A stretch of 64,000 nt of DNA from Nitrospirota bacterium (GCA_963737155.1 CAVTRN010000001.1:832001-896000); one strand, 5' to 3'; shown: positions 9,214 to 11,873, counted from the stretch's first letter. Numbers and translations are program-made. The notes: generated by a model from the letters alone, not told the origin.

Positions 9214-9546
9214 TGCTACAGGCCTCCGGTATTAAGAAGTTTATAGTTACAGCTCCTTACCATATTATTGAGCAGTTCTGGTTAACACGCTAAAAAGCGC
9301 GAAGTCCGACAATTAGATTGATTGTTTACATGTGTTGTTATGAATACATGACTGATTCGAATCTATGTCAATGTCTTCTAAAGGGGATGAATGGGCCTGT
9401 CAAATGGATTATTTAAATGTATATCGCTAATAAATATATAGACATAATGGTTGACAGTTGAAAAAGTGACCTGCCCCTTGTCACCGTGGGTTATACTTGG
9501 ATGCAATGGGTGTCCAAATACAGAGCCACAAACAAGGAGGCAGGTC

Positions 9547-10659
9547 ATGAAAGATTCTATCACAATCGTAGGACTCGATTCAGCAAAAAACTCCATAGCT
9601 GTAGCAACGGCCGAAATTGGCGGCAGCCAAGAGGTTCGCTACTACGGCAAAATCGGCGGCGACATGGCGTCATTGGACAAAATGGTCAGAAAGCTTGAAA
9701 GCAAAGGCTCAGAACTGCACTTCGTCTATGAAGCCGGGCCGTGTGGTTACGAAATATACCGCCATCTAACCAAGAGAGGTTACAAATGCACGGTTGTGGC
9801 ACCATCGCTGATTCCCAAGAAAAGCGGAGATCGCGTCAAGACCGATCGTCGTGACGCGCAAAGTCTAGCCAGGCTGTATCGGGCCGGAGAACTGACTCCT
9901 GTTTACGTGCCCCAAGAGGATGAGGAAGCCATGAGAGACCTGACCCGATGCCGCGAAGACGCAGTCAAGGCCCATCGCACTGCCCGGCAGAGGTTAGGCG
10001 CGATGCTCCTGCGGCATGGACACCGTTACTCTGGAGAAACCGCATGGACCCAAGCCCACATGCGCTGGTTGTCTGATATCAAGATGCCACACCCTGCACA
10101 GCAGATCACGCTGCAAGAGTACATCAACACGGTGAAGGAATGCGCAGAGCGTGTGGCCCGGCTTACGGAGCAGATTCAAACGCTTATGCCCACATGCCGA
10201 ACGGCCCCTGTTGCACTCGCAATCCAATCGTTACGCGGCATCGCGGATGTAACTGCCGCGACCACCATGGCCGAGATCGGAGACTTGGGACGTTTTGAAA
10301 ATCCCAAGCAGCTCATGGGATACCTTGGATTGGTCCCTTCCGAATACTCCAGCGGCGACAGCACCAGACGGGGTGCTATCACCAAAACCGGAAACACCCA
10401 CGTCAGGCGCGCATTGATTGAAGCGGCCCAAGCCTACAGTCTGCCGGCCCGAGTGAGCCGGGTAATCCTCAAGCGGCAGGAGGGGCTGCCGAAAAATATC
10501 TGTGATATCTCCTGGAAAGCCCAGGTGCGTCTCTGCGGACGGTTCCGTAAACTCACGGCCAAAGGGAAGCCCAGGAACAAGGTGGTAACCGCCATTGCCA
10601 GGGAACTATGCGGCTTCATATGGGCAATTGCCCGGGAAGTGAATCTCCAGAGCGCATAA
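9547..10659 (+). CDS. IS110-family DEDD transposase/recombinase
   Basis: VGLD, YEAGPCG, KTDRRDA and GLVPSEYSSG (catalytic Ser) motifs; AGGAGG RBS. Confidence 0.95.
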   Translation: MKDSITIVGLDSAKNSIAVATAEIGGSQEVRYYGKIGGDMASLDKMVRKLESKGSELHFVYEAGPCGYEIYRHLTKRGYKCTVVAPSLIPKKSGDRVKTDRRDAQSLARLYRAGELTPVYVPQEDEEAMRDLTRCREDAVKAHRTARQRLGAMLLRHGHRYSGETAWTQAHMRWLSDIKMPHPAQQITLQEYINTVKECAERVARLTEQIQTLMPTCRTAPVALAIQSLRGIADVTAATTMAEIGDLGRFENPKQLMGYLGLVPSEYSSGDSTRRGAITKTGNTHVRRALIEAAQAYSLPARVSRVILKRQEGLPKNICDISWKAQVRLCGRFRKLTAKGKPRNKVVTAIARELCGFIWAIAREVNLQSA

Positions 10660-10933
10660 GAAGATTAACCCAAGAACAAGGCGTCACACAAAACTTGAGG
10701 GGGTATCTTGGCATGGACTGTCTCTGGAAAATCAATCCTGGGGCATTTATGAAAGAAAAAATCAACCCTCAAAGGTAAAAACCGCTCAAATCGTCAACAT
10801 AGGCGGAAGCATCGAGCTTTCCAAAGAACAGGATCAAAAACTTGAAGTCACCCGGTAACAATGGCGACTCAAACGACTGAGGCAAAACAAAGGAGGACGC
10901 AAGCAAACAATAAACAACCTCCAAGGCATAAGC

Positions 10934-11097
10934 GGGGACGCGGCCACGTTTACGGAGAATCCTCGTCCAAACTATGGAATAAGGCAATGCCGAACTTCCG
11001 TTAATAGAGCGAGGCAGCTCCGCGGCGAAGAAAGGTCTTGCGGTCAAACCCGCGAATATCAGAGTGATCAAACGTCGCACAAGTCGGCCCCGTCCCT
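10934..11097 (+). ncRNA. Putative bridge/seek RNA of the IS1111 element
   Basis: Closing stem GGGGACGCGGCC/GGCCCCGTCCC with two internal loops whose segments match the insertion site and the circle junction. Confidence 0.75.
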
Positions 11098-11252
11098 CCT
11101 TACGCCTTGGAACATATTGAAACAACGAACCCTTTGAAAAAAAGGGGCAGGAGACTATTTTCCCTATTGACAACTGTCAACCATATCAGTTTGTTAACTT
11201 GATCGGTTTAAAGAACTGGCAACATCACTAGAAAAAGGATACACTTGCCGAA

Positions 11253-11873
11253 TTAAATTCGGCGCGCATTGTCATCAGGATAGACGTACTCCATGTGTTT
11301 GGCTGTCGCCCTGGCAACATTTTCCCCGTAATGGAGCGCCACTACCTTAAGTGCCATGTCGATGCCTGCAGAAATTCCAGCCGATGTAAACACGCGCCCG
11401 TCCACAACAACATGCTTGTCATATTCAACTTTTACAGAGGGAAATGAATCACGCATCCAATCCAATGAACGCCAATGCGTCGTAGCGTGGAGTCCGTTTA
11501 ACAACCCCGCGGACCCAAGAAGCATAGCCCCAGTACAAACTGATGATAACGTTTCAACCTCCGATGCACGATGCCGTAACCAATCAAGCATTGCGAGGTT
11601 CTGTAGTGCCTTCCGAGTGCCCCACCCGCCAGGAACTACAAGAATGTCCACTTTAGGGCAGCTGTCAAATGTATAGTCTGGAAGTACCCTCATACTCCCT
11701 GCTGTCACTACTTGAGATAATTTCTCCGCAACGAGTAATATTTCAAAAGGTGAATCCTCTTCGCGTCGTTTCTCTTCGTTTAATCGGGTTACGGAAAACA
11801 CCTCAAAGGGACCGCAGAAATCGAGTACTTCGACATCCTCAAACAATACAATGGCAACACGCTTTCTTTCCAT
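11253..11873 (-). CDS. DJ-1/PfpI family protein (InhA-like)
   Basis: EVLDFCGPFEVF, VVPGGWG, SVCTG, ATTHW and TSAGISAGID motifs. Confidence 0.9.
   Translation of the reverse strand: MERKRVAIVLFEDVEVLDFCGPFEVFSVTRLNEEKRREEDSPFEILLVAEKLSQVVTAGSMRVLPDYTFDSCPKVDILVVPGGWGTRKALQNLAMLDWLRHRASEVETLSSVCTGAMLLGSAGLLNGLHATTHWRSLDWMRDSFPSVKVEYDKHVVVDGRVFTSAGISAGIDMALKVVALHYGENVARATAKHMEYVYPDDNARRI

Follow-up and report, generated by a model that had tools for sequence, protein, structure and literature searches.

The window analysed here is a stretch of 64,000 nucleotides (nt) from a Nitrospirota bacterium (GCA_963737155.1, CAVTRN010000001.1:832001-896000), and all positions are counted from its first letter. 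Positions 9440-11189 of the plus strand hold an intact insertion sequence (IS) of the IS110 (DEDD) family with IS1111-type anatomy. Its transposase gene, with 107 nt of non-coding DNA upstream and 530 nt downstream, lies between subterminal inverted repeats, and the long downstream region contains a predicted bridge/seek RNA with two internal loops. Comparative evidence from copies, empty sites and relatives indicates that loop 1 reads the target and loop 2 the joined ends of the element. The principal features are the following.

9440-11189, plus strand: whole element, 1750 bp with AG at each end, or 1748 bp when one AG is counted as target.
9440-9441, plus strand: left core dinucleotide AG.
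9440-9446, plus strand: left terminal extension AGACATA, 7 nt including the core; the 7-nt spacing recurs in 30 of 30 tabulated relatives.
9443-9448, plus strand: CATAAT, the -10 half of a predicted junction promoter, which would be formed only in the circle.
9447-9460, plus strand: left subterminal inverted repeat ATGGTTGACAGTTG, a perfect 14-bp reverse complement of 11171-11184.
9547-10659, plus strand: transposase/recombinase gene, 370 amino acids, with an AAGGAGG ribosome-binding site 7 nt upstream.
10920-11113, plus strand: predicted bridge/seek RNA of 194 nt, with a closing stem from which two arms extend, an internal loop in each.
10966-10975, plus strand: loop 1, 5' strand UCCAAACUAU, in which (C)AAACUAU pairs with top-strand AT-AG-TTT(G).
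11001-11007, plus strand: loop 1, 3' strand UUAAUAG, which repeats the sequence of the left flank and core and so pairs with the bottom strand.
11028-11039, plus strand: loop 2, 5' strand AAGAAAGGUCUU, in which GUCU (11035-11038) is complementary to AGAC, the first four bases of the left end.
11055-11072, plus strand: loop 2, 3' strand, in which AUAUCAGA (11056-11063) has the sequence of ATATC (right end), AG (core) and the first left-end base.
11167-11172, plus strand: TTGACA, the -35 half of the predicted junction promoter.
11171-11184, plus strand: right subterminal inverted repeat CAACTGTCAACCAT, which pairs with 9447-9460.
11185-11189, plus strand: right extension ATC (3 nt) followed by the right core AG.

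The counts of 7 nt for the left extension and 3 nt for the right assign one AG to the left end. An earlier note on this DNA had proposed an intact, RNA-guided element of the IS1111 type, and this is supported by the transposase, the geometry of the ends, the place and predicted fold of the RNA and the arrangement of its guides.

The transposase matches the Pfam families PF01548 (DEDD_Tnp_IS110; E = 6.8e-17) and PF02371 (E = 1.1e-23), and it scores 273.9 bits against the NCBIfam model NF033542, 'IS110 family RNA-guided transposase', which has a cut-off of 140. The catalytic residues D11, E62, D100, D103 and S269-G270 align with the motifs of IS621, for which residue numbers and roles are given in PMC11208158. 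The paired motifs, window element first, are GLD/GID (D11), YEA/IEA (E62), KTDRRDA/KTDTVDA (D100 and D103) and YSSG/YESG (S269-G270). Overall similarity to IS621 in a search of the PDB is weak (E = 6.5e-11 over partial stretches). The nearest named relatives, which owe their names to plasmid annotations, are of the ISSfr2 family (56.6% protein identity) and the ISSso6 family (48.6%).

The genome (4.84 Mb in two contigs) carries six full copies of the element that are 99.7-100% identical. Two of them are identical and the rest differ by 2-5 bases, and the transposase frame is open in all six, with at most two amino-acid changes. All differences lie outside the RNA (10920-11113), and the guide and scaffold bases are the same in every copy. 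The ends are identical in the six copies, each of which is inserted in one orientation in the context AT|AG...AG|TTT; for the copy in the window, the left flank and core read ATATAT|AG and the right core and flank AG|TTTGTT. One of the six lies within a 1.86-kb repeat, of which 11 uninterrupted copies in the genome read GAT-AG-TTTGG (in full, ...GGCAAGAT-AG-TTTGGGACC...). Because these 11 paralogous sites carry a single AG, they directly prove the boundaries of the element, and they validate the method by which the empty site of the window copy had been reconstructed as ATATAT-AG-TTTGTT. Neither the six occupied sites nor the 11 empty ones reveal a target duplication beyond the shared AG. Over 9 nt, the empty-site sequence is complementary to the 5' strand of loop 1. 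Assembled contigs from other soil samples place the element in at least three flanks beyond the six, with divergence starting exactly outside AT...TTT; at 90% likeness, these contigs give weak support for further insertion sites. Judged from its copies, the element is recently active.

The region 10900-11189 has an unusually stable predicted fold (z = -5.66), and none of 200 shuffled sequences folded as well. The four strings to which the earlier note had drawn attention, CAAACTAT (10968-10975), ATAG (11004-11007), GTCT (11035-11038) and ATATCAGA (11056-11063), are found at those positions and are the 5' and 3' strands of the two internal loops in the predicted fold. For comparison, 79 related loci were fetched; the nearest, with 87-91% protein identity, come from Nitrospirota metagenome bins, and others come from Desulfobacterota and further groups. 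A consensus structure derived from 29 distinct RNAs of these relatives has 47 pairs, 21 of which change on both sides. In this consensus 97.9% of the cells are paired, compared with 35-43% when the partners are slid. In four of five covariation measures, 0 of 500 shuffles reached the observed value; in the fifth, 'further standard pair types', 127 of 500 did so.

A covariance model built from the RNA alignment scores the window RNA at 201 bits, and in 27 of another 35 loci it locates the RNA immediately 3' of the gene. Seven of the eight misses are explained by a contig end or a truncated gene, and L077 is unexplained. This locus, in a Geobacteraceae bin with 60% protein identity, is the sole one with about 1.5 kb 3' of a full-length transposase match that lacks the RNA by both BLAST and the model. 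The model also matches 3' of plasmid-borne transposases annotated as ISSfr2-family (107.9 bits) and ISSso6-family (79.9 bits). No Rfam family reached its gathering score in 9300-11400, where two chance-level matches were the only ones (E = 0.36 and 0.45). A mini-hairpin AUCA/UGAU placed inside the donor guide by RNAalifold was dropped, as its bases are invariant and it cannot form in L043, L048 or L089.

When the 194-nt RNA was shuffled 5000 times, a core-spanning match of at least 8 nt arose 79 times to the target, 115 times to the junction and twice to both. Taken alone, then, the loop matches are moderately unlikely to occur by chance. They could in principle be coincidental, with the 3' region serving as a structured untranslated end and the protein picking the target, and each 8-nt match by itself does appear in about 2% of the shuffles. 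Against coincidence stand the rarity of both matches together (2 of 5000), a covariation of guide and target that none of 100,000 permutations reproduces, and a covariation of guide and end in L089 and the ISSfr2-type element, both detailed below; we consider the chance of coincidence to be negligible. The reading of the loops as guides is solid because of this comparative evidence, namely the six copies, the 11 empty sites and the covariation in relatives.

Loop 1 had been proposed to read the target, and the insertion sites of the other copies had been named as the place where this could fail. All six insertion sites fit the loop-1 guides, and in the relatives the guides covary with the targets. 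Across the family the ends are almost invariant; the flanks vary by lineage, and both strands of loop 1 vary with them. The guide-target comparison covered 38 distinct insertions with 18 different 5' guides, leaving out the duplicate sites L020, L021 and L057 and the contig-edge loci L027, L031 and L043. The reverse complement of the 5' guide agrees with its own right flank at a mean of 4.45 of six positions, compared with 2.01 for foreign flanks, and the contiguous run of matches from +1 averages 4.16 for own flanks and 0.40 for foreign ones. Exactly five of the six positions match in 23 of the 38 insertions and all six match in none, so that the 5' target guide seems, from these alignments, to read five bases past the core. 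With one insertion per guide, 80 of 108 positions match; the permuted mean is 37.3, and the count never exceeded 61 in 100,000 permutations. For the 3' guide, set against the four bases that end the left flank, the count is 33 of 44 (three lineages with longer 3' loops are excluded), the permuted mean is 19.0, and again 0 of 100,000 permutations reached the observed value.

The same genome contains an intact, single-copy relative (G000:C1:1719226-1720770; L007:1501-3045) of 1545 bp with a 369-amino-acid transposase at 71% identity. Its ends are identical to those of the window element, and its loop-1 guides and target differ: the target reads ..CTATT-AG-TAGGTGG and the guide is ACCUACUA. The two elements are a naturally retargeted pair. 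The suggestion that the system is potentially reprogrammable is supported by natural retargeting, with 18 different 5' guides carried on one scaffold. A contig from another soil sample carries a variant of the RNA (window positions 10939-11055, 117 nt) with six differences, of which five (10969, 10970, 11001, 11003 and 11004) are in the guides and one (11025) is in a stem; this variant fits guides of the L019 type.

The core itself varies at the right junction in some lineages, where it reads GG (L028-L038, L066) or AA (L064, L068, L081, L082, L086, L079, L078) against AG at the left junction. In these lineages the 5' target guide fits the right junction (CC or UU), AG is read by the donor guide as well as by the 3' target guide, and the left junction is always AG. 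The pattern suggests that a core mismatch between donor and target may be tolerated and resolved in one direction.

Loop 2 had been proposed to read the joined ends. It was tabulated for 30 of 34 elements, including distant relatives and ISSfr2-type and ISSso6-type elements and leaving out L032, L087, L052 and L091; in this table L028 is mis-registered by one extra base. All 30 elements keep the 7/3 end geometry. In each of them the inner stem of loop 2 is followed by 8 nt that copy the right end, made up of AT, the 3-nt extension and AG. This donor guide is exact at positions 2-8 in 22 elements. In seven more, the sole difference is at the in-situ right core (GG or AA), the guide reading AG like the left junction, and the one remaining element, of the ISSfr2 type, has a single mismatch. 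In both lineages with an altered right extension the guide has changed along with it (AAG and AAUAAGAG in L089, GAG and UAUCAGAG in the ISSfr2-type element). For the 3' strand of loop 2, therefore, the proposal holds strongly, with two covarying lineages.

On the 5' strand, the C of GUC lies opposite the core G, and the next two bases lie opposite the first two of the left end. All three of these central pairs are present in 21 of the 30 elements, and the fourth (completing GUCU) occurs only in the close relatives of the window element and in L043. Changes in the left end are compensated in L068 (T/A), L075 (ATAA/UUAU), L089 (ATG/CAU) and the ISSso6-type element (GCAG/CUGU). These four compensating lineages support the register of the GTCT of the earlier note, which was rightly placed; as evidence it is a weak 4-nt match, and most relatives pair over 3 nt. 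Directly after the donor guide, GAGUGAUCAAA (11062-11072) is nearly invariant in the family down to about 50% protein identity. Inspection by eye of the ends and targets found no DNA partner for it, and it could serve in protein binding or in a handshake-like contact.

Joining the ends with one AG yields TTGACA-18-CATAAT, as had been predicted for the circularised element, and this promoter-like sequence would lie about 98 nt upstream of the ATG. We are highly confident that the element belongs to the seekRNA/bridge-RNA systems and moves as published for them. What the sequences themselves show is the element's anatomy, its six copies and the empty site, together with an RNA structure that is conserved and guides that covary with both targets and ends; the circle, the activity of the promoter, the processing of the RNA, its binding to the protein and the chemistry are inferred by analogy with the published systems. 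In the proposed pathway, the DEDD/serine recombinase would first excise the element as a circle, in which the joined right and left ends would make a sigma-70-like promoter. This promoter would then drive one transcript covering the transposase gene and the RNA of about 190 nt from the 3' non-coding end. The RNA would direct the recombinase through its two internal loops, loop 1 holding the target and loop 2 the joined ends, and strand exchange at the shared AG would insert the element in one orientation with no duplication beyond AG.

Several observations weigh against this interpretation. In the target loop, the right flank of L022 fits its guide at only two of six positions, and L040 has a mismatch at +1. 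ATAGTTT occurs 588 times in the genome and the 11 perfect 9-nt sites are unoccupied; therefore movement must be rare, or specificity must need more than these bases. In the inserted state, the region upstream of the RNA has no promoter-like site above chance (one found, 1.6 expected), which fits an expression that depends on the circle or on read-through. The assembled contigs of four sequencing runs, out of 22 runs that all consist of assembled contigs, showed no joints, and with them neither a circle junction nor an empty/occupied polymorphism of the element, and no expression of its RNA; one metatranscriptome contig holds a short loop-2 segment of a relative and proves nothing on expression. 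An orthologous empty site for the window copy was not found in the 30 relatives searched, where the intergenic insertion point is not conserved and the left flank matches only within the neighbouring gene (75-81% identity). The unoccupied perfect targets, the contigs devoid of junctions and empty sites and the lack of an evident promoter would also suit a recent fossil, complete in sequence and immobile in this host, for example for lack of RNA synthesis or of a host factor. A fossil is harder to reconcile with six copies at 99.7-100% identity with open frames, with guide and scaffold bases that are identical in all of them, and with the further flanks in other samples, and we regard it as very unlikely.

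The donor loop provides further points of this kind. The GUCU match is just 4 nt long, mismatches occur in the L082 group, L084, L062 and the ISSso6-type element, and the central pairing is imperfect in nine of the 30 elements. The guiding role of the RNA might be limited to the target and, on the donor, the right-end side, the left end being recognised mainly by the protein through the subterminal repeat, with GUCU adding little or nothing. Pairing over just 3-4 nt, the nine relatives that miss one or more central pairs, and a left end and repeat that are almost invariant across the family would all agree with this, as would the statement in PMC11208160 that the donor-binding bases of many IS1111 orthologues are arranged differently from those of IS621. 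Set against it are the compensatory changes that fall in the same register in L068, L075, L089 and the ISSso6-type element, and we consider a left end read by the protein to be possible but doubtful. Identical ends and an identical donor loop are found in lineages of several phyla, which make up a widespread clade of soil and sediment with ISSfr2 and ISSso6 as its named members. A hybrid mode is likewise conceivable, and to our minds rather unlikely: the donor module would be frozen, the left end would be held mainly by contacts between protein and repeat together with 3-4 RNA pairs, and only the target loop would be freely rewritten. The divergent right junctions (GG or AA) of several relatives hint, in this reading, that donor and target need not share the first or second core base and that the exchange resolves in one fixed direction.

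The remaining point concerns classification. The transposase of the window element has 370 amino acids, against 330-350 for the IS1111 family in PMC11187229, and it is only 23.6% identical to that of IS5075 over 97% of its length (E = 5e-6), the sole named reference of the IS1111 group that was compared. The system could thus be the same and the filing wrong: rather than in IS1111 proper, the element might belong in an IS110-group branch whose non-coding region is 3', or in a deep branch of its own. In addition to the length and the distance from IS5075, IS621 is about as distant, and some IS110-type elements carry a 3' non-coding region (PMC11187229). The perfect 14-bp subterminal repeat and the exact extensions of 7 and 3 nt are, however, hallmarks of the IS1111 family according to the same source, and the long non-coding region lies downstream with the top-strand match placed 5' of the bottom-strand match, as in IS1111 types. 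Misfiling is, in our judgement, improbable.

Placed in the IS1111 type, the window element resembles the seekRNA elements ISEc11, ISPa11 and ISKpn4 of Siddiquee et al. 2024 (PMC11187229). The likeness extends to the DEDD transposase, the subterminal repeat, the 7/3 extensions and the long RNA-coding 3' non-coding region. The order of the guides is also the same, with the top-strand match 5' of the bottom-strand match and the two overlapping at the insertion point, and there is likewise a predicted promoter at the circle junction and natural retargeting, for which the ISEc11/ISXne4 pair can be compared. The subterminal inverted repeats of IS1111 elements are usually 11-13 bp, or 7-17 bp according to PMC11208160, which also reports bridge RNAs predicted in 93.0% of IS1111 elements, at the right end. 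Our RNA model of 194 nt is longer than the published 'long seekRNA' of 145-170 nt (PMC11187229). The window copy further differs from these elements by about 260 extra nt between the gene and the RNA.

With IS621 (Durrant et al. 2024, PMC11208160; Hiraizumi et al. 2024, PMC11208158) the window element shares the two internal loops for target and donor. In each loop, one strand is directed to the bottom strand left of the core and one to the top strand right of it, both including the core. The catalytic D, E, D, D and SG are conserved, and the core AG on the gene strand of the window element corresponds to CT on the other strand. Unlike in IS621, the RNA is at the 3' end rather than the 5' end, the guides come in the opposite order with respect to the gene strand, long subterminal repeats are present, and the left-end donor guide is much shorter (3-4 nt). 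The ISSfr2-family and ISSso6-family elements share the 7/3 end geometry and the match to the RNA model with the window element, whereas their targets differ, as does the right extension of ISSfr2. Among the papers listed by a search for the two names, none describes the RNAs of ISSfr2 or ISSso6; the supplementary tables of PMC11208160 and PMC11187229, which lay outside that search, may list them.

The window element is a well-documented new example of the bridge/seekRNA-guided elements of the IS1111 type, and it leaves the known mechanism unchanged. It offers a clean natural case of RNA-guided recombination from an uncultured soil bacterium, with boundaries proven by empty sites. For those who engineer bridge recombinases it is a new orthologue in which one RNA scaffold has at least 18 naturally rewritten target guides, and its relatives provide a data set on the guide positions that matter, five bases to the right of the core and about three to the left.

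Two features of the downstream region lie outside the RNA.

10660-10919, plus strand: extra non-coding segment of about 260 nt, absent from most relatives.
11130-11147, plus strand: conserved hairpin CCCUUU/AAGGGG and, after it, a U-rich stretch; the hairpin separates the RNA from the right repeat.

Most relatives measure 1534-1566 bp, against 1750 bp for the window element, and the extra segment is common only to its closest relatives, the 1721-bp elements L019-L021. Two of its parts, 10695-10759 and 10814-10872, share about 79% identity with DNA adjoining other transposase genes of the genome (C2:10593, 313412 and 495772; C2:1916625 and 1954848), and by its sequence the segment looks like a patchwork of IS remnants. 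Between 23 and 27 of 28 sequences retain the pairs of the hairpin, and the relatives use several pair types; a scan listed this hairpin on the minus strand only. In the same region (11130-11184), the TTGACA box lies within a palindrome, TTGACAACTGTCAA, that overlaps the right repeat.

The repeat of about 1.86 kb that supplied the empty sites (e.g. C2:1206284-1208140, L126) is present in at least nine near-full copies, and 12 places match a 450-nt query at 97-98%. It has an open frame of 451 amino acids, for which there was no Pfam match and no meaningful NCBIfam match, and its 3.45-kb locus contains no inverted repeat of 14 nt or more. One copy hosts the window-type insertion described above, and another lies 90 bp from a different copy of the window element. 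From its sequence, the repeat may be a mobile element of an undescribed type.

The genome also holds decayed relatives that are 72-87% identical to the window element, at C1:1293384-1294242, C1:252827-253039, C2:266473-266712, C2:819629-819804 and C2:337106-337223. One of them has internal deletions, two are left-end fragments, and two are right-end fragments that have lost loop 1 of the RNA and keep loop 2.

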